This document shows positions 5,789 to 24,409 of a stretch of DNA of 25,684 nt, piece after piece. The notes under the pieces were generated by a model. That model searched no databases. It worked only from the letters and a program-made list of their open reading frames with translations, and was not told the DNA's origin. The stretch is from a virus (Duplodnaviria > Heunggongvirae > Uroviricota > Caudoviricetes), in IMG/VR virus record IMGVR_UViG_3300029467_000153. One strand, 5' to 3'. The position numbers and the translations under genes are program-made. Position 1 is the stretch's first letter; each line of letters starts with the position of its first letter.

Positions 5789-5929
5789 TATCGCGTCCTC
5801 AACAATGAATTTTGTGATGCAGTGCCTGGTGCCTCCAGGTGACGTTAACCAGTTAACAATTAACGTCGGATATTCGAACGCTGGAAGGCTATCGACACCA
5901 GGGATAAGCGTGAAAAGTTCACGGCGCTA

Positions 5930-6193
5930 GTGCCTGCAATTATGGAGGCTATTCGGATTAATGATTTCAGGTTGTATCGTGAAATTAGTGACGGAAAAAG
6001 CATCACGTACATGATCGCCGGGTTAAACAAAGAATATGGCGATGTGGTGGAGTCCGGACTGCTTTTTGCTGATCCTGCCGTAGTGGATCGTGAAACTGAC
6101 GAACTTATAGAAAAAGCAATTGCTTTCAAACTTGCGTATCGACAGCAATACCAACAAAAAGCTGGATGGAATTATGAGCCTTCTTTTTGCTGA
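5930..6193 (+). CDS. hypothetical protein, first gene of the rightward early region
   Basis: 87-aa ORF (GTG at 5930 or ATG at 5942) with balanced composition, unlike the Ser/Thr-rich antisense ORF 5860-6129; its stop overlaps the start of the next gene (coupling). Weak RBS. Confidence 0.3.
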   Translation: MPAIMEAIRINDFRLYREISDGKSITYMIAGLNKEYGDVVESGLLFADPAVVDRETDELIEKAIAFKLAYRQQYQQKAGWNYEPSFC

Positions 6194-7046
6194 ACGCCCA
6201 CTGGTTATAAACACACAGCTTGCGATGAAGATTGGCTTAAATGAAGCCATTGTGTTGCAGCAGTTGCATTACTGGTTGAGAGATACCAATTCCGGCATGG
6301 AATGTGATGGTGTTCGCTGGATTTACAACACAACGGAACAATGGCTGGAACAGTTCCCATTCTGGTCAGAGTCAACGTTAAAGCGCGCGTTTGCAAGTCT
6401 GAAAACGCTGGGGCTTTTGCGTTGTGAAAAGCTCAATAAATCAAAGCGCGATATGACCAATTTCTACACGATCAACTACGGGAGCGAGCTTTTAGATGGT
6501 GGCAAATTGAGCGAATCCATCGGTTTAAAATGCGCCGCTCCATCAGGTCAAAATGACACGATGGAAGAGGTCAAAATGAAACGCTCCATTGGTTCAAAAC
6601 GACCCAATGTCATCGGGTCAAAATGGCCTGATGATCTTACAGAGAATACAACAGAGATTACTACAGAGAATAAAAACACTTTTCGTCCGGAAGCTTCGCA
6701 ACCGGACCCGCAGACCGCTGAACAGGATTTTTTAACCCGGAACCCCGACGCGGTTGTGTTTAGTGCGAAAAAACGCCAGTGGGGTAGCAGGGAGGATTTG
6801 GCGTGTGCGCAGTGGATTTGGGGGCGGATCGTGAACCTTTACGAACAGGCTGCCAGCGACGATGGAGAGATCATGCGACCAAAAGAGCCTAACTGGACAG
6901 CCTGGGCCAATGACGTGCGCACAATGCGGATGCTGGATGGCAGAAGCCACAGACAAATTTGCGAAATGTTTGGTCGGGTAAGCCAGATTCTGGCACTGAC
7001 AGATAGAAAGCCTGTTATCTGTCAACGAACAGGGAAAAAACGATAA
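6174..7046 (+). CDS. phage replisome-organiser / replication-initiator-like protein (winged-helix N-terminal domain)
   Basis: Start chosen at the internal ATG 6174 (MSLLFAERPLVINTQLAMKIGLNEAIVLQQLHYWL...); the N-terminal pattern ...EQWLEQFPFWSESTLKRAFASLKTLGLLRCEK resembles DnaD / phage replisome-organiser N-domains. Recognised by pattern only. Confidence 0.45.
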   Translation: MSLLFAERPLVINTQLAMKIGLNEAIVLQQLHYWLRDTNSGMECDGVRWIYNTTEQWLEQFPFWSESTLKRAFASLKTLGLLRCEKLNKSKRDMTNFYTINYGSELLDGGKLSESIGLKCAAPSGQNDTMEEVKMKRSIGSKRPNVIGSKWPDDLTENTTEITTENKNTFRPEASQPDPQTAEQDFLTRNPDAVVFSAKKRQWGSREDLACAQWIWGRIVNLYEQAASDDGEIMRPKEPNWTAWANDVRTMRMLDGRSHRQICEMFGRVSQILALTDRKPVICQRTGKKR

Positions 7047-7566
7047 AACCCACTGGATTATTTTTATGAAAGAGGCATCCAGTGAGTAGATTCGTAAGGT
7101 TACAGATACGTATATCTGAATAATTAAATTCAGTTCTGTAAATAAAACTTAATCCTTAACCGGATGGATTTCTGCACCCTCAGAACATCAGGAGGCCGCC
7201 CGAAAGGGCGGTAGTGAAATGCGAAAGTTCAAAATTATTATTGAAACGGGAATAGCTGGTGGAGATTTTGAGGATGTATTCGAAGTGGACGATGACGCAA
7301 CACCTGATGAAATTCATGACGGAGCATAAGAAATTTTCTTTAACTACTGCAATTACTCATACCACGAAATAAAAGACGATGAGGAAGAACAAAGTGGCTG
7401 ATTTTTGTTCAGCTAAATATAACATCAGTTTTGAAGAGCGGGATGAACTATTAATGGACTATGGTGAGTTACGCGGTGGAAGTGCTGCTGATGTCGAATC
7501 CTAGCGTGATGACTATGAAGCGGGAAAAACTCCGGTCGAAGCATATTGTGATGAGTGGGGCGATGA

Positions 7567-7854
7567 ATGAGCGAGATTAATTATCAGGAAGGGCATGAAA
7601 CGGCGGGGCAAGCAAAACCAGTGACATGGCGATATCGCTACGTGAAAAAAGGCGTTACGGACTTTCAGGGGAAGTAGTGGTCTGGTGACTGGAAATATGT
7701 ACCGAAAAAAGAGGATTGTAACGACAGGCCGAACTATCAAATTCAGGCCTTATTCACTGCCTCACCAGTCCCGGTTACATCAGAAGAATTGGTTAAAGCT
7801 GTGCACTTTTATGAACAACTAAAACGCGAAAATCCACCAACATCCGGCAACTAG
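7567..7854 (+). pseudogene. about 95-codon ORF interrupted by a single in-frame amber codon
   Basis: MSEINYQEGHETAGQAKPVTWRYRYVKKGVTDFQGK-TAG(7675-7677)-WSGDWKYVPKKEDCNDRPNYQIQALF...PPTSGN in one frame; the frame stays open on both sides of the stop. Confidence 0.3.
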
Positions 7855-8108
7855 ATTAATGGGTTAACTATGTCGGTTAAACGACCAGCCAACTGAAAAA
7901 GCGGAAACCTGATTACAGGTTGCCAGATAAGGCAATGAGCTACCTGGCGCGGAACGGACTGATAAGTATGGGGAATGTTTTACGATGAACCTTTAGACTA
8001 AAGAGTTTGTAACGCTATGTAAGTGATTTTTTCTGGTTTAGATATTTATATGTCCGGCCAAATTGAGGTGTGTTTAAATGTAATTGCACATTGATTGTAG
8101 GAGGAATA

Positions 8109-8246
8109 ATGAAAAACGCATTGCAGTTTTTGTTTGTTGCGTTCTGGTTGTTCGCATCATGTATGCCCATCATCTTCACAGCAAGGTATATGGAAAAAGT
8201 TGATGTTTTGATATTAATATTTGGATATATAAATGCCCTTTTTTAG
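8109..8246 (+). CDS. small hydrophobic (membrane) protein, 45 aa
   Basis: AGGAGG at 8099-8104, 4 nt before ATG 8109; product MKNALQFLFVAFWLFASCMPIIFTARYMEKVDVLILIFGYINALF is largely one hydrophobic helix. Confidence 0.35.
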   Translation: MKNALQFLFVAFWLFASCMPIIFTARYMEKVDVLILIFGYINALF

Positions 8247-8621
8247 GGGTGTTCATGGCGGTCATGTGCATTGAATACTGGCGGTAAATACAGCGAACTC
8301 CATTGGTTTAGTTGGATATTTACTGTGCTGGACAAAAACGGTTTGCGGGGAAATCTTAGTTAAGTAGAATGACTGCGGGTGCTTGAGGCTATCTGCCTCG
8401 GGCACGAACACCAACGGCAGGTAGAGAAAAGCCCCAGTTAACATTACGCGTCCTGCAAGACGCTTAACATTAATCTGAGGCCAATTTCATGCCAGACACA
8501 TGTAGGTTAGCCTCTTACGTGCCGAAAGGCAAGGAGAAGCAGGCTATTGTTAACACCAAGCTGTAATGTCCCCTTTGAACCATTCTAAAATGTCCCCAGA
8601 CAATTCTCTGGGGGATTTTTC

Positions 8622-9963
8622 ATGACCAAAGAAACTGTTACGATGAGTCATAAGGAACTCCACCGACTTCAGATTATTCAGGAGTCAATTAATCGACATA
8701 TTACTCAGGAACAAGCTGCGGCACGCATTGGCATTTCTATTCGGCAGGTTAAACGTCTGGTGCAACGGTATAGAAATGAAGGGCCTTCTGGTCTGGTTTC
8801 CCACCGACGTGGAAAGCGTCCTAATAATTCCTTTTCTACTGAATTCAGAGCAACAGTAATTTCACTCCTCAAAGGCCGTTACGCTGATTTTGGACCTACG
8901 TTTGCGTGCGAAAAATTGCGCGAGATACACGGTTTATCTTTATCCGTTGAAACTCTCAGAAAGTGGATGATAGAAGAGGGGGGTATGGCGTGAACGCCGT
9001 CGTAAAATTGCCCGTATATATCAACGCCGCATGCGACGACCATCTTACGGTGAACTGATCCAGATTGATGGCTCACCTCATGACTGGTTTGAAAATCGAG
9101 GCCCCAGATGTACACTGATCGTTTTCATTGATGATGCCACCAGTGCGTTGATGGCGTTGCGTTTTGTGCCTGCTGAAACAACCCGGGCTTACATGGAAAC
9201 CCTCCGGGGTTACCTTAATGATCATGGCGTACCGCTCGCTCTCTACTCTGATAGACACAGTATATTCAGGGTAAATAACCCAGAGCGGGAAGGTGAGCTG
9301 ACCCAGTTCACTCGTGCGATAAAGACACTGGGCATCGAGCCAATCCATGCCAACAGCCCGCAGGCAAAAGGGCGGGTAGAGCGCGCCAATCAGACACTAC
9401 AGGACAGGCTGGTCAAAGAAATGCGGCTTCAGAATATCAGTGATATTGAAACAGCAAATGCATGGTTGCCGACCTTTATTGAAGCCTATAACAACCGGTT
9501 CGCTACGTCGCCTCGTACTACTGATAATGCTCATCTTGATGTGCACCATTCTGAAGAGGAACTGGGTTATATCTTCAGCCTACAGGCGAAGCGCGTTCTG
9601 TCTAAAAATCTCACTTTCCAGTACAAAAGCAGTGCGTTTCAGGTACGCAGTGAGGGCCGGGGATATCGACTTAGGCATTCGGTTGTTACTGTATGCGAGA
9701 ACTTTGACGGTGAAATTAACGTTCTGTATGACGGGAAAGCGCTGGGCTGGGAAAAGTATGTTGATGGCCCGGAGCCTATACCACTGGATGATGAAAAGAG
9801 TGTCCATGAACGAGTGGATAATGCCCGTATTGATTTACGCTCAAAATACTATGTTAAACCTAAAGCTGACCATCCCTGGCTTACGCGCCGAACGCAAAGT
9901 CATCAGCAAGTTAAGCCCCCGAAGTTACCTAAAAAGAAGCCTGATCCCGATAAAAAAGATTGA
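8622..9963 (+). mobile_element. IS-element DDE transposase (N-terminal HTH plus integrase-core/rve-like domain), split by a frameshift
   Basis: ORF 8622-8993 (HTH-like N-terminus) and ORF 9031-9963 (DDE-like motifs IQIDGSPHDW, YSDRHSIF, SPQAKGRVERANQTL) are in different frames and overlap around a G6 run at 8978-8983; removing one G fuses them (...MIEEGVWRERRRKIARIYQRRMRRPSYGELIQIDG...). IS family and terminal inverted repeats were not determined. Confidence 0.65.
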
Positions 9964-20382: not shown

Positions 20383-20581
20383 GAGGTTGTCCCGTATTCA
20401 GTGTCGCTGATTTGTATTGTCTGAAGTTGTTTTTACGTTAAGTTGATGCAGATCAATTAATACGATATCTGCGTCATAATTGATTATTTGACGTGGTTTG
20501 ATGGCGTAGATGCACGTTGTGACATGCAGATGATAATTATTATCATTTTGCGGGTCCTTTCCGGCGATCCGACAGGTTACG

Positions 20582-20770
20582 GGGCGGCGACCTCGCGGGT
20601 TTTCGCTATTTATGAAAATTTTCCGGTTTAAGGCATTTCCGTTCTTCTTCGTCGTAACTTAATGTTTTTATTTAAAATACCCCCTGAAAAGAAAGGAAAC
20701 GACAGGTGCTGAAAACGAGCTTTTGGGCCTCTGTCGTTTCCTTTCTCTGTTTTTGGCCGTGGAATGAACA
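20582..20770 (+). other. lambda-type cos site: cosN (GGGCGGCGACCT, 20582-20593) and cosB with terminase-binding repeats
   Basis: gttacggggcggcgacctcgcgggttttcgctatttatgaaaattttccgg... is near-identical to my recollection of the phage lambda right-end/left-end junction; CGTTTCC-type R elements follow (ttccgttcttc, aaaggaaacgacag, ctgtcgtttcc) before the Nu1-like start. Confidence 0.75.
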
Positions 20771-21076
20771 ATGGAAGTCAACAAAAAGCAGCTGGCTGAC
20801 ATTTTCGGTGCGAGTATCCGTACCATTCAGAACTGGCAGGAACAGGGAATGCCCGTTCTGCGAGGCGGTGGCAAGGGTAATGAGGTGCTTTATGACTCTG
20901 CCGCTGTTATAAGATGGTATGCCGAAAGGGATGCTGAAATTGAGAACGAAAAGCTGCGCCGGGAAGTTGAAGAACTGCGGCAGGCCAGCGAGACAGATCT
21001 CCGACGTTCCTGGGTGACAAGCGTATTGAAGGCTCGGTCTGGCCAAAGTCCATCCGTGGCTCCACGCCCAAAGTGA
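20771..21076 (+). CDS. nohA: terminase small subunit (Nu1-like), truncated after about 75 residues by a deletion
   Basis: N-terminus MEVNKKQLADIFGASIRTIQNWQEQGMPVLRGGGKGNEVLYDSAAVI.WYAERDAEIENEKLRREVEELRQASE matches lambda Nu1 (from memory); after about residue 75 the ORF reads out of frame across a deletion junction. Confidence 0.7.
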   Translation: MEVNKKQLADIFGASIRTIQNWQEQGMPVLRGGGKGNEVLYDSAAVIRWYAERDAEIENEKLRREVEELRQASETDLRRSWVTSVLKARSGQSPSVAPRPK

Positions 21077-21615
21077 GAGGCACCTGTCAGATTGAGCGTG
21101 CAGCCAGTGAATCCCCGCATTTTATGCGTTTTCATGTTGCCTGCCCGCACTGCGGGGAGGAGCAGTACCTTAAATTTGGCGATAAAGAGACGCCGTTTGG
21201 CCTCAAATGGACGCCGGATGATCCCTCCAGCGTGTTTTATCTCTGCGAACATAATGCCTGCGTCATCCGCCAGCAGGAGCTGGACTTCACTGATGCCCGT
21301 TATATCTGCGAAAAGACCGGGATCTGGACCCGTGATGGCATTCTCTGGTTTTCGTCATCCGGTGAAGAGATTGAACCGCCTGACAGCGTGACCTTTCACA
21401 TCTGGACGGCGTACAGCCCGTTCACCACCTGGGTGCAGATTGTCAAAGACTGGATGAAGACGAAAGGGGATACGGGAAAACGTAAAACCTTCGTGAACAC
21501 CACGCTCGGTGAGACGTGGGAAGCGAAAATCGGCGAACGTCCGGATGCTGAAGTGATGGCAGAGCGGAAAGAGCATTATTCAGCGCCCGTTAGCGAATAC
21601 CAGTACAGATGGTAA
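20996..21615 (+). pseudogene. internal fragment of terminase large subunit (gpA-like), no native start
   Basis: Frame encodes ...KSIRGSTPKVRGTCQIERAASESPHFMRFHVACPHCGEEQYLKFGDKETPFGLKWTPDDP...EHYSAPV, which I recognise as an internal part of lambda gpA; the track ORF 21073-21615 begins at a GTG that is a Val codon in gpA. Confidence 0.7.
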
Positions 21616-21791
21616 TCATAGCCATTCACTGTCCGGCACAGCAGCATCTGCAGGTGCACACGCGCATACTGTCGGTATTGGTGCTCATACGCACTCCGTT
21701 GCGATTGGTTCACATGGACACACCATCACCGTTAACGCTGCTGGTAACGCGGAAAACACCGTCAAAAACATCGCATTTAACTATATTGTGA
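21600..21791 (+). pseudogene. C-terminal remnant of a side tail fibre gene (stf)
   Basis: Frame encodes ...[56 protein letters not shown]-stop, a typical tail-fibre C-terminus with HTH.G repeats; no upstream body or start; the stop is 10 nt before tfa. Confidence 0.55.
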
Positions 21792-21801
21792 GGCTTGCAT
21801 A

Positions 21802-22377
21802 ATGGCATTCAGAATGAGTGAACAACCACGGACCATAAAAATTTATAATCTGCTGGCCGGAACTAATGAATTTATTGGTGAAGGTGACGCATATATTCCG
21901 CCTCATACAGGTCTGCCAGCAAACAGTACCGATATTGCACCACCAGATATTCCTGCTGGCTTTGTGGCTGTTTTCAACAGTGATAAGGCATCGTGGCATC
22001 TCGTTGAAGACCATCGGGGTAAAACGGTTTATGACGTAGCGTCAGGGGACGCGTTATTTATTTCTGAACTCGGTCCGTTACCGGAAAATGTTACCTGGTT
22101 ATCGCCGGAAGGGGAGTTTCAGAAGTGGAACGGCACAGCCTGGGTGAAAGATGCAGAAGCAGAAAAACTGTTCCGGATCCGAGAGGCGGAAGAAACAAAA
22201 AACAGCCTGATGCAGGTAGCCAGTGAGCATATTGCGCCACTTCAGGATGCTGTAGATCTGGAAATCGCAACGGAGGAAGAAACCTCATTGCTGGAAGCCT
22301 GGAAAAAGTATCGGGTGTTGCTGAACCGTGTTGATACGTCAACTGCACAGGATATTGAATGGCCAGCACTGCCGTAG
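21802..22377 (+). CDS. tfaQ: tail fibre assembly protein
   Basis: 191-aa [51 protein letters not shown]... typical of lambdoid/Mu-type Tfa chaperones; directly follows the stf remnant. Confidence 0.8.
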
Positions 22378-22474
22378 GGTAAAACATATAAATTCTATAA
22401 TTAGATGTATCTTTCCATTTACGGCAAGGAAGGGGGCTTGGAAGACGTAAAGCATCTCACACCGAGATTATTTT

Positions 22475-23065
22475 TTATATGTCAGGTGTCTGAAGTTTTG
22501 CTTTGGCTCTTAAAATGGTTTGCCGCGAGGTTTTGAATTCCCGGGCAATGGCACTTATACTTACACCTGACTTAATTCGTTCGAATACCACCTGTTTCTG
22601 TTCTTCATTTAACACAGGTGGTCGATCAAAACGTTTCCCTGCGCCGCGGGCTCTTACTATCCCGGAATGAGTGCGTTCAAGTAAAAGGTCTCGTTCAAAT
22701 TCAGCGACTGCTGAAATTACGTGCATCATCATTTTTCCTGTTGGACTGGTCAGGTCAATGCCCCCCAATGCTAAGCAATGCACTCTGATACCTGTTTCGG
22801 TCAGTTGTTCCACTGTTTTCCTGATATCCATTGCATTACAACCAAGGCGATCCAGTTTTGTCACAATCAATTGATCACCACATTTCAGGCGAGCAAGCAA
22901 CCGGTTAAAACCAGGACGCTCACTGGTTGCTGCTGAGCCGCTAATGTGTTCTTCGATTATTTGCTGAGGTTTGATTTTAAAACCTGCACTTTCGATTTCC
23001 CGGCGTTGATTTTCGATGGTCTGATCCAGCGTTGATATCCGACAGTAAGCAAAAATTCGAGACAT
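22475..23065 (-). CDS. pinQ: serine DNA invertase (Pin/Gin/Hin family)
   Basis: 196-aa ORF; N-terminal catalytic motif [15 protein letters not shown], resolvase core and C-terminal HTH ([20 protein letters not shown]). Confidence 0.9.
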
Positions 23066-23381
23066 AGTGAGACTCTATACGAAATTGGTGTTCATATCAT
23101 AATGCATCTCAGAAAATAATTTTGATTATTTTTGTGCATATTTGTATGTACACGTTCGAAAATAAACGAATGCGTATGCAACCCCGTAATTTTGGTGAGA
23201 CCCAAAATCGATTTTGTGAAAAATGGCTTTAACTCGGTTTGTTTTTCGAGTTCCGGGCGGACTCAAGGAAGAAGAATAGTGTTGCGTGTTATTTTAACCA
23301 GATTTCAAGTTGTTTGATCGTGGAAAAGTGGAGCAAAATGTTGTTAAAGTGGAAAAATGATAAAAAAGTAAGTTTATTATA

Positions 23382-23615
23382 TTACATTTTACCATTTAAA
23401 TTTTGGTTGTCTTTAAGAACTGATATCGCTGTTTGTAATAATTCTTTGTTATCCAGCCATGATTTTTTCTTTATGTTTCCTTCAATGTAATCAAGCAATG
23501 TTCTGGTATTGATAGGTCTTCCCTGTTTTGCTACTTCCACTACAGCATCCCCTAGGATAATTCTTACTTCAGGAAGCTGCGCAGGGAACCACTTTAGGGT
23601 GTCTTTTGATTTCAT
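23382..23615 (-). CDS. ydfK: small prophage protein (YdfK-like by position)
   Basis: 77 aa from the internal ATG, which has an AAGGA Shine-Dalgarno (MKSKDTLKWFPAQLPEVRIILGDAVVEVAKQG...); lies between pin and attR. Confidence 0.45.
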   Translation of the reverse strand: MKSKDTLKWFPAQLPEVRIILGDAVVEVAKQGRPINTRTLLDYIEGNIKKKSWLDNKELLQTAISVLKDNQNLNGKM

Positions 23616-24395
23616 GAAGATATTCCTTAAAATATTATTGAGTTTCATTGCGATATTGTATGTCTGATTCAGGATATGTTGACTTATACATCGGTTTTGT
23701 CTGGGTTATTGGATATGCCAATCCCTAATTTTATTAGGGCATGACTAAAAATGCTGAATATGATAAGGAGAGAAGTGATTATCAGTATGCTGTTCATATA
23801 GCCTCGAATTAGTAATGTGTTATATATGATATAGTTGACAATTTTTATCTTGGGTGTTCTTAAAGTTCGTAGATAAACATTGTCGTTTCAGGTATACAGG
23901 AATGCTAACAGGTGGCAGCAAAAATCAGGCGGTTTATGGCGCAAGCTGAAGCGGCAACTGCAAACTATCTTATGCAGAGACTCTACACGGATTGGGTTTA
24001 AAAGTATACATAGATAACAGTTTTTATCTGAAAAAGAAAAATATCAAGGTGATATAGCCTATATGCCTTTGATGCGGAGGAATGAATGTGATGGGAGTGA
24101 TGTATCTGAATAGTTGAAAAACCGCAGACACGCCTTATGCAAGAACGTGCTGCGGTTGGCTGGTAAATTTTTCGATAGTGTGAGTATTGAATGATTTCCA
24201 GCCGTTCTTGATTTTACGCATAAATCCATGAAAAAACTACTTATCTGTTGGGGAGTTTTTTTGGGGCATATATGGGACAGAAATAGGCCCCAGATAGACA
24301 CTGAGATCGAACTTAGGATGCTTTTTAAAAAATGCAACTATCTGAAAAAACCTAGAAAACGCCAAGGAAACCACAGGATGGGAAAAAACACCTGT

Positions 24396-24409
24396 GAATT
24401 ATGGATTTC
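24396..24409. repeat. attR core, direct repeat of 1156-1170
   Basis: gaattatggatttc; the ydfJ reading frame resumes here. Confidence 0.55.

Follow-up and report, generated by a model that had tools for sequence, protein, structure and literature searches.

The region studied very likely consists of the tail-fibre end of a Qin-type lambdoid prophage that has decayed, joined to 0.7 kb of fossil DNA from a small Tn3-family transposon, with a recombinase gene, pinQ, that has no substrate in cis. The window, i.e., the whole stretch of DNA that was analysed (25,684 nucleotides, 25.7 kb), had been described in a first-pass annotation as carrying half of a Pin/Gin-type invertible segment. The results presented here contradict that description: a single tail-fibre set is native to the phage lineage, PinQ does not group by sequence with the Din-family invertases, the spacing between tfa and pin is explained by a Tn3-family inverted repeat in the gap, and stf was cut by deletions.

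The locus is pinQ of the decayed (cryptic) Escherichia coli prophage Qin, adjoining ydfJ. Qin was identified by comparison with E. coli genomes, where nohA, tfaQ, pinQ, and ydfK are annotated beside ydfJ. The remnant nohA' (20771..21076, plus strand) encodes the N-terminal 79 residues of a lambda Nu1-type small terminase subunit (Pfam Phage_Nu1, E=4e-47, profile positions 1-79 of 164) and is out of frame beyond them. It is followed by an internal fragment of gpA, the gene of the large terminase subunit (21073..21615, plus strand), which has partial matches to Pfam GpA_ATPase and GpA_nuclease and enters the stf fragment out of frame. Only a C-terminal stump of stf is present (21608..21802, plus strand): the last 64 codons and the stop, with a Pfam Phage_fiber repeat. 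This stump is 94% identical to residues 1054-1120 of StfR, a protein of 1120 aa, and homology to StfR begins at about 21599. The tail fibre assembly gene tfaQ (21802..22377, plus strand; Pfam Caudo_TAP, E=3e-44) is intact. Its product is of full length (191 aa) and is 96% identical to K-12 TfaR across all 191 residues; the gene at this position carries the tfaQ annotation in E. coli genomes.

A spacer of 54 bp (22378..22431) leads from the tfaQ stop to the transposon end. It is missing from lambda-type phages without pin, and the homology of these phages to the window ends at 22364-22383. Next to it are the degenerate IRR of a Tn3-family transposon (22432..22466, minus strand) and pinQ itself (22475..23065, minus strand), which encodes a small serine recombinase of 196 aa; its Pfam domains are Resolvase (E=2.5e-36) and HTH_7. 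A remnant of the transposon res/promoter region lies 5' of pinQ (23066..23160, minus strand), as judged from alignments to transposon copies and a half-site scan. The gene of the cold-shock protein YdfK (23382..23615, minus strand) is named after the annotations of strain TOK-001, K-12 Qin, and Rac, and its coordinates were carried over from the alignment with TOK-001. The block pin-ydfK-ynfT is conserved and also occurs in phages; its counterpart in Rac is pinR-ynaE-ynaM. The genes tfaQ and pinQ are convergent, with 97 bp between their stops, and this gap contains no terminator-like site and no significant fold (fold z-score -1.2). Thus the annotation was right in listing one C-terminal stf fragment and one tfa on the plus strand, with the 3' end of pin about 100 bp away. 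The exact PinQ protein of the window is found on 27 public E. coli contigs.

The truncation of stf is due to ordinary illegitimate prophage deletions with 3-5 bp of microhomology, which joined the terminase gene gpA to stf, and not to site-specific recombination. Relative to TOK-001, L001 3304-4164 is missing from the window, and the junction (20998-21002) has a 5-bp overlap; this deletion truncates nohA. The second deletion covers L001 4759-5489 and has a 3-bp overlap at its junction (21589-21591). The segment between the junctions (20998-21591) is 100% identical to L001 4165-4758. In TOK-001, gpA and stf are fused in frame at this locus, giving a product of 703 aa. A half-site-like sequence, TTAGCGAATACC, occurs at 21590 (7.5 bits) beside the second junction and was considered as a remnant of a crossover site. 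It was rejected because it simply encodes part of Stf (WLANTS) and lacks a partner half-site, and because the junction shows 3-bp microhomology.

According to sequence comparisons, PinQ falls outside the Din-family invertases and appears to derive from the tnpR resolvase of a Tn3-family transposon. Its identity to PinE, Gin, and Cin is 36-39%, while these three are 75-82% identical to one another. Identity to TnpR resolvases of small Tn3-family transposons is 77-83%. Two of these resolvases, P0015 (82% identical to PinQ) and P0101 (77%), are each encoded about 160 bp from, and divergently to, a 994-aa transposase with DUF4158 and DDE_Tnp_Tn3 domains; this is the setting of the relatives that have Arg76. 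The best PDB match of PinQ by sequence is Gin (E=1.3e-28). Several proteins with Arg76 and 89-92% identity were considered as intermediates between TnpR and PinQ; they turned out to be clean TnpR/PinQ chimeras with single switch points and form no graded series.

Homology to the transposon extends beyond the coding sequence. BLAST aligns window positions 23145-22436 with L005 5919-6630 at 82% DNA identity. The L005 element is an intact 3.8-kb tnpA-res-tnpR transposon with identical 38-bp inverted repeats, to both of which the IRR in the window aligns. In total, pinQ with about 80-95 bp upstream and 39 bp downstream is homologous to the res-tnpR-IRR end of this intact transposon. The boundary of this homology on the tfa side (22432-22436) coincides exactly with the terminal inverted repeat's tip. 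The repeat remnant matches at about 27 of 35 positions (counted by eye), with a 3-bp deletion beside the tip, and it is kept in Rac, in phage 2H10, and in the diverged copy L015. The spacing of about 100 bp between tfa and pin is thus explained, because the degenerate Tn3-family repeat sits in the gap.

The remainder of the transposon is eroded or missing. The transposon res consists of 26-bp and 32-bp inverted pairs and a lone half-site. Of these, only the pinQ-proximal half-site (23076-23084) fits the consensus in the window, and the 26-bp and 32-bp dimer sites are eroded or missing. A half-site pair scan revealed no inverted pair of TnpR half-sites anywhere in the window. The second transposon inverted repeat is absent from the window as well. 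A tblastn search with the 994-aa TnpA gave no tnpA remnant: the best match in the window had E=4.8, and Rac and phage Turner gave none. The alignment hints that the left breakpoint could be the very centre of res site I, but it is too diverged for such a call.

We infer the direction of transfer, from transposon to phage, from the canonical structure of the transposon. An ancestral phage would have acquired a Tn5403-like element just 3' of tfa, and the tnpA half of this element would have disappeared afterwards, possibly through breakage at or close to res site I. The tnpR gene that survived, today's pinQ or pinR, would have been left with no cis substrate and would invert nothing at the locus. 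Any activity of PinQ would then be exerted in trans or confined to binding its own promoter-proximal site.

Crossover sites were sought with a matrix of 12+2+12 half-sites built from real pix (e14), gix (Mu), and cix (P1) sites, which themselves score 29-35 bits. No Din-type crossover site is present in the 25.7-kb window, where the top score is 3.0 bits against a median maximum of 5.1 among 100 shuffles, or in the segment 21400-23400, where the top score is -6.9. The same matrix found no such site in Rac stfR or in the corresponding region of phage 2H10. An inverted-repeat search in 20400-24400 gave short imperfect chance-like pairs, none of which flanks 21600-22470 in a site-like manner. The failure of the annotation to recognise gix/hix-type sites is thus borne out. 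Taken with the TnpR half-site pair scan, the window has neither 26-bp invertase-type sites nor paired sites of the resolvase type.

The window has one stf/tfa set. In Rac and in the viable lambdoid phages 2H10 and Turner, stf is of full length, there is only one tfa, and pin converges on it as in the window. Therefore one set is the native layout of this phage lineage; the diverged copy L015 shows it too. Of 5426 complete E. coli genomes, 2669 have a colinear tfa/pin junction, and the sole variant junction in a sample of 40 records spread over the ranking is an IS1414 insertion. A partial match (H157) that starts near the tip of the inverted repeat was considered as an alternative cassette context; it is actually this IS1414 element, inserted between tfa and pin. 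Inversions were detected by Kirigo et al. (2025; PMC12529663) in e14 only and not in Qin or Rac. The annotation is supported in these respects: there is a single stf/tfa set, gix/hix/pix-type sites are absent, and the recombinase has no substrate in cis.

The annotation regarded the recombinase as catalytically intact, which is true in part. PinQ retains Ser11, Tyr7, Arg9, Asp72, and Arg73, and two other residues cast doubt on its activity. Position 76, which aligns with R71 of Tn3/gamma-delta resolvase, is Cys; consequently the full catalytic set of Tn3 resolvase (Y6, R8, S10, D36, R68, R71) is incomplete. The window protein alone has Asp at position 147, where the GR minor-groove motif has its Gly. 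Cys76 occurs in five of 120 cluster representatives, all in PinQ/PinR-type clusters; about 110 have Arg, and the remainder had no match to the search motif. The Cys76 representative whose context was looked up (P0009) adjoins tfa-stf, and Cys76 is common to every phage-borne copy examined. G147D was found in none of the motif-matching cluster representatives; together with T17I and Q115H it is specific to the pinQ lineage of the window. The GR motif belongs to the DNA-binding arm of Hin and gamma-delta resolvase, and by analogy with these proteins G147D probably weakens DNA binding by the window PinQ further. Having Cys in place of the Arg71 equivalent probably weakens the chemistry, by analogy with R71 mutants of Tn3 resolvase, in which recombination is lost and cleavage is about 1000-fold slower (PMC2794168).

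Nevertheless, the gene may not be a dead relic. The dN/dS ratio is 0.34-0.40 in the phage-borne pin lineage versus 0.17-0.19 in comparisons with transposon TnpR; between two transposon tnpR genes, synonymous sites are saturated and yield no ratio. The region upstream of pin is 97.5% conserved between copies with coding regions 89% identical. The dN/dS ratio and the upstream conservation suggest a retained function, which counts against the relic view. Cys76 is fixed in two phage-borne lineages with a protein divergence of 17%.

What PinQ might do can be read in several ways. Its interpretation as a Din-family invertase whose invertible segment once held two opposed stf-Ctail/tfa sets, one of which disappeared together with the crossover sites, is highly improbable. 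The gene is named pin and adjoins tail-fibre genes, Gin is the top PDB match of its product, and e14, Mu, and P1 do have the two-set arrangement. However, PinQ is far closer to TnpR than to PinE, Gin, and Cin, and Rac and complete viable phages have a single tfa and a full-length stf in which there is no Din-type site. Besides, pinQ is convergent, unlike the genes of Mu and e14, and the gap contains a Tn3-family repeat. The Fis-dependent recombinational enhancer in the 5' part of the invertase gene was compared as well. Over the corresponding codons, gin and pinE match the annotated P1 enhancer at 76-79% identity, and all three have a Fis-consensus-like 15-mer. The respective region at the 5' end of pinQ has 54% identity, and its first 200 nt contain no Fis-like 15-mer; as Fis sites are degenerate, the comparison carries little weight.

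The guess that the enzyme acts in trans on other prophages agrees with a claim published for K-12 PinQ and the e14 P segment. According to PMC12529663 (Kirigo et al. 2025), overproduction of K-12 PinQ raises the inversion of this segment from ~30% to 88%, and the effect is gone in strains without stfP, stfE, or e14. If this is right, Cys76 may not preclude recombinase activity. We regard it as possible, if somewhat unlikely, that PinQ is an active trans invertase that works on e14 pix sites and yields the StfE2 chimera blocking adsorption of phage T2, and that the window copy does likewise if its strain has e14. Apart from the published shift and its dependence on stfP, stfE, and e14, such activity is supported by the likeness of TnpR-type and Din-type half-sites (TGTCCGAAACC versus TATCCAAAACC, the same at 9 of 11 positions). 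On the other hand, the same paper reports that deletion of pinE locks the P segment despite the presence of pinQ and pinR, and term searches in its main text found neither a catalytic-serine mutant of PinQ nor a test of PinQ without PinE. Activity in trans is also at odds with Cys76, which replaces the Arg whose mutation abolishes recombination by Tn3 resolvase, and with the geometry of the transposon site-I-like site, which has 2 bp more between its half-sites than pix. The window protein additionally has G147D, and the window does not contain e14. It is unlikely that PinQ is instead a domesticated DNA-binding protein that does not recombine, represses its own promoter at the surviving site-III-like half-site or modulates another recombinase such as PinE, and is kept by phages for that. 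The fixation of Cys76 in two lineages at the dN/dS given above, the conserved upstream region with the promoter-proximal part of res best preserved, and the dependence of P inversion on pinE as reported in PMC12529663, which suits a modulator, are consistent with such a role. Against it, the dN/dS ratio is about twice that of the transposon TnpR comparisons and fits relaxed constraint equally well, and the upstream conservation could stem from recent recombination between prophages. More tentatively than the trans invertase, we put forward a rather doubtful combination: PinQ and PinR, found in many E. coli prophages and in viable lambdoid phages, would be descendants of a Tn3-family resolvase in which a key catalytic Arg gave way to Cys and which nevertheless remained under purifying selection. 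They would no longer be ordinary recombinases and would be non-catalytic or have an unusual active site, biasing, for example, P-segment inversion driven by PinE. If so, the phenotype ascribed to PinQ inverting e14 would depend on PinE.

Both pinQ and the fact that it is an orphan were known before, and a role in trans was published in 2025; the transposon origin of the gene is a modest new detail. Yet PinQ and PinR are annotated as tail-fibre invertases, while they look like resolvase fossils with no cis substrate and with a substituted catalytic arginine. This bears on how to read the claim of PMC12529663 that PinQ inverts e14 DNA as an anti-phage defence. It also concerns genome annotation, where Tn5403-type resolvases are now labelled "pinR" and the prophage copies "DNA invertase". 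More generally, a serine recombinase beside tail-fibre genes does not alone imply an invertible segment.

The closest known relatives of the locus are pinQ and pinR of K-12 Qin and Rac. It is the same gene at the same chromosomal site (ydfJ-ynfT-ydfK-pinQ-tfaQ-stfQ'-nohA), with 97-98% protein identity; the window PinQ is three residues off PinR and five off K-12 PinQ. Cys76 and the 97-bp gap are common to them, while T17I, Q115H, and G147D distinguish the window copy. Compared with K-12 Qin and Rac, the window has two extra deletions (861 bp and 731 bp), its nohA and gpA are broken, and its stf is reduced to 64 codons.

The TnpR resolvases of Tn3-family transposons resemble PinQ at the identity given above and have a nearly identical helix-turn-helix region; the 82% DNA identity spans 712 bp from the promoter-proximal res to the terminal inverted repeat. 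A small transposon of this family has tnpA-res-tnpR between 38-bp inverted repeats and is ~3.8 kb long, whereas the window lacks tnpA and the second repeat, its res dimer sites are eroded, its catalytic Arg is changed to Cys, and the cassette is within a phage late region. The donor is presumably Tn5403-like, a name that we adopt from publications and automated "pinR" annotations and not from a sequence match.

With the Din-family systems (PinE of the e14 P segment, Gin of the Mu G segment, and Cin of the P1 C segment) PinQ shares the small serine recombinase fold, the Resolvase and HTH_7 domains, and the position beside stf and tfa; the recognised half-sites are broadly similar as well. These systems have two tail-fibre sets and 26-bp crossover sites, while the pinQ locus has one set and no such sites. 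The invertase genes of Mu and e14 are transcribed away from the invertible segment, and pinQ is convergent with tfa.

The recombinase gene occupies 22475-23065 on the minus strand and encodes a small serine recombinase of 196 aa (Pfam Resolvase, E=2.5e-36, with HTH_7). The list of ORFs and the Pfam hits show that it is convergent with a tail fibre assembly gene of full length (21802-22377; Caudo_TAP, E=3e-44). This gene is directly preceded by a 64-codon remnant of stf (21608-21802); farther upstream, 21073-21615 contains a piece of terminase gpA and 20771-21076 a truncated gene of the Nu1 type. The first-pass annotation had described a single stf C-terminal fragment and a single tfa, with the 3' end of pin about 100 bp away; both points were confirmed, the gap from stop codon to stop codon being 97 bp. 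Megablast against complete E. coli genomes and the K-12 annotation identified the locus as the ydfJ-proximal end of the cryptic prophage Qin, with the gene order nohA - stfQ' - tfaQ - pinQ - ydfK - ynfT - ydfJ'. The recombinase gene is the already known pinQ of Qin. TfaQ, which is intact, shares 96% identity with TfaR. Three substitutions (T17I, Q115H, and G147D in the window) separate the recombinase from K-12 PinR, and five separate it from K-12 PinQ. The variant is a natural one, since exactly the same protein is encoded on 27 public E. coli contigs.

This layout had been interpreted as half of an invertible segment of the Pin/Gin type, in which gix/hix-type sites could not be recognized by eye. 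The latter observation was upheld by a Din-site matrix (12+2+12) built from 12 half-sites of pix, gix, and cix. For the matrix, pixL and pixR of e14 were recovered by an inverted-repeat search, gixL and gixR were taken from the annotated boundaries of the Mu G segment, and cixL and cixR from the P1 annotation. The real sites score 29-35 bits and are the only strong matches in the control loci. No Din-type crossover site was found in the window (top score 3.0 bits) or, in particular, in 21400-23400 (top score -6.9 bits); the median maximum over 100 shuffles was 5.1 bits. The same matrix detected no such site in Rac, including all of stfR, or in the corresponding region of phage 2H10.

The idea of a halved segment is not supported. 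In Rac of K-12, a full-length stfR and a single tfaR are followed by pinR in convergent orientation, with ynaE and ynaM beyond it. The lambdoid phages 2H10 and Turner have the order J - lom - stf (~1118 aa) - tfa, with a pin gene converging on tfa; its product is 98.5-99.5% identical to the recombinase of the window. In a diverged phage-type copy (L015, 83% protein identity) the tfa/pin arrangement and spacing are unchanged. Because all of these share the layout, one tail-fibre set is the native design of the lineage. Of 5426 complete E. coli genomes, 2669 show a colinear tfa/pin junction, and among 40 junction records sampled evenly down the ranking the sole variant is an IS1414 insertion. 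Kirigo et al. (NAR 2025, PMC12529663) likewise report inversions in databases only for e14 and not for Qin or Rac. In E. coli 1332KP (L020, 3758-5642) IS1414 separates tfaQ from pinQ, having inserted within a few bp of the end of the fossil transposon described below, and pinQ is frameshifted.

At the same locus of E. coli TOK-001 (L001, 3592-5703) there is an in-frame gpA-Stf fusion ORF of 703 aa, composed of gpA residues 1 to ~530 and the final ~170 residues of Stf. This fusion is a scar of the original large Qin deletion, which removed head and tail genes. Its annotation reads merely "phage terminase large subunit family protein". Compared with TOK-001, the window has a deletion of 861 bp inside nohA/gpA (junction 20998-21002, 5-bp overlap) and another of 731 bp (junction 21589-21591, 3-bp overlap); the surviving stf corresponds to residues 1054-1120 of the 1120-aa StfR. 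These deletions are illegitimate events typical of prophage decay and not products of site-specific recombination. Qin is mosaic between strains, since at 5869-8839 the window lacks ~2 kb of the TOK-001 immunity region (regulator, ydfA, ydfB, ydfC), the neighbouring segment is less similar (96.7% vs ~99%), and the IS66-family insertion of TOK-001 is absent. Directly upstream of the broken nohA, at 20582-20760, is a putative, apparently intact lambda-type cohesive-end region. It presumably starts with cosN (GGGCGGCGACCT, 20582-20593), judged by its likeness to the lambda left end, and continues with a cosB-like stretch, including a 26-nt imperfect inverted repeat (20690-20746).

PinE, Gin, and Cin share 75-82% identity with each other, whereas PinQ is only 36-39% identical to these Din-family invertases. 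A large protein database contains close relatives of PinQ, many of them encoded on plasmids of enterobacteria. A context check of the relatives P0015 (82% identity), P0101, and P0085 (77-78%) showed that they are mostly encoded ~160 bp from, and divergently to, a 994-aa DUF4158+DDE_Tnp_Tn3 transposase, which is the canonical tnpA-res-tnpR arrangement. One such unit (L005) has identical terminal inverted repeats of 38 bp at its ends, ~3.8 kb apart, and is therefore a minimal transposon of the Tn3 family that carries no passenger genes. By description it resembles Tn5403, an element of this minimal kind according to the literature; a gene adjoining Tn5403 is labelled "pinR" by automated annotation.

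The window, read from 23145 to 22436, is 82% identical in DNA to the L005-type transposon over 712 bp, covering the promoter-proximal part of res, the entire gene, and 39 bp past the stop codon. In a multiple alignment the similarity stops exactly at the tip of the inverted repeat. A degenerate repeat with a 3-bp deletion beside the tip is found in the window (22432-22466), Rac, 2H10, and L015, and pin ends about 100 bp from tfa because this repeat occupies the gap. Upstream of tnpR, transposon copies have an inverted pair of TGWMCGAAA half-sites spanning 26 bp, a pair spanning 32 bp, and a single proximal half-site; phage and prophage copies retain the proximal half-site only (window 23076-23084). 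A half-site scan revealed no inverted pair anywhere in the window or Rac, and no tnpA remnant is detectable in the window. In the simplest history, a transposon of the L005 type would have entered an ancestral phage immediately downstream of tfa and then lost its tnpA half, with a breakpoint that the alignment suggests was in or near the first res subsite. The genes pinQ and pinR are tnpR of a fossil Tn3-family transposon, with a remnant of the inverted repeat, a decayed res, and a lineage-wide substitution of a catalytic Arg. We did not find this origin in the searchable literature, and it is the new detail about a known gene.

Two observations concern related elements. In a chromosome from a JGI sample (L017, 334-975 and 1143-1898) a Tn3-family element with a PinQ-like TnpR lies beside another gene with a Resolvase domain and a truncated piece of DUF4158, which suggests nested or tandem Tn3-family insertions. 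The proteins P0003, P0005, P0006, P0007, and P0008 are clean chimeras, each switching once from TnpR-type sequence in its N-terminal part (with Arg76) to PinQ-type sequence in its C-terminal part. Homologous recombination may have joined tnpR genes of plasmids with pin genes of prophages, or the chimeras may be assembly artefacts, as most come from very short contigs.

The enzyme had been regarded as catalytically intact. The nucleophile Ser11 and Tyr7, Arg9, Asp72, and Arg73 are present, but Cys at position 76 and G147D make this doubtful. Arg71 of gamma-delta/Tn3 resolvase and its Arg counterpart in Gin align with position 76, at which the window, K-12 PinQ and PinR, phage 2H10, and L015 all have Cys. 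Arg is present in ~110 of 120 cluster representatives and Cys in five (a few were unmatched by the search motif), and every TnpR-context copy examined has Arg76. The R71A and R71K mutants of Tn3 resolvase do not recombine, and their single-strand cleavage is ~1000-fold slower (PMC2794168). G147D, confined to the lineage of the window, places an acidic residue directly before Arg148, within the Gly-Arg motif. In Hin and gamma-delta resolvase this motif reaches into the minor groove of the DNA, and by analogy G147D may affect the recombinase of the window. At residue 115 (22721-22723) the window-specific change to His aligns with a His of Gin helix E in the HMMER alignment; all other family members examined have Gln. 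The dN/dS ratio is 0.34-0.40 within the phage-borne Cys76 lineage and 0.17-0.19 between phage and transposon copies; constraint on this lineage is relaxed but still present. Upstream of pinQ, 164 bp (23066-23229) are 97.5% identical to L015 (coding sequence 89.3%, protein 83%), which suggests either constraint on a promoter/operator or a patch acquired by recent recombination.

The proposal that the recombinase is an orphan, possibly acting in trans on another prophage, is consistent both with the sequence evidence and with the literature on PinQ and e14, a prophage outside the window. In PMC12529663, inversion of the e14 P segment (1797 bp) is reported to rise from ~30% to 88% when K-12 PinQ is overproduced; the inversion creates the chimeric protein StfE2 and thereby blocks T2 adsorption. 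According to the same paper, deletion of pinE locks the P segment despite the presence of pinQ and pinR. Term searches of its main text found neither a PinQ catalytic mutant nor a PinQ test in a pinE-free background. A Cys76 protein may catalyse the reaction directly, although this is less likely for the G147D variant of the window. The half-sites of the two groups resemble each other (TGTCCGAAACC for the transposon, TATCCAAAACC for gix), but the first transposon site has 2 bp more between its half-sites than the 26-bp Din sites.
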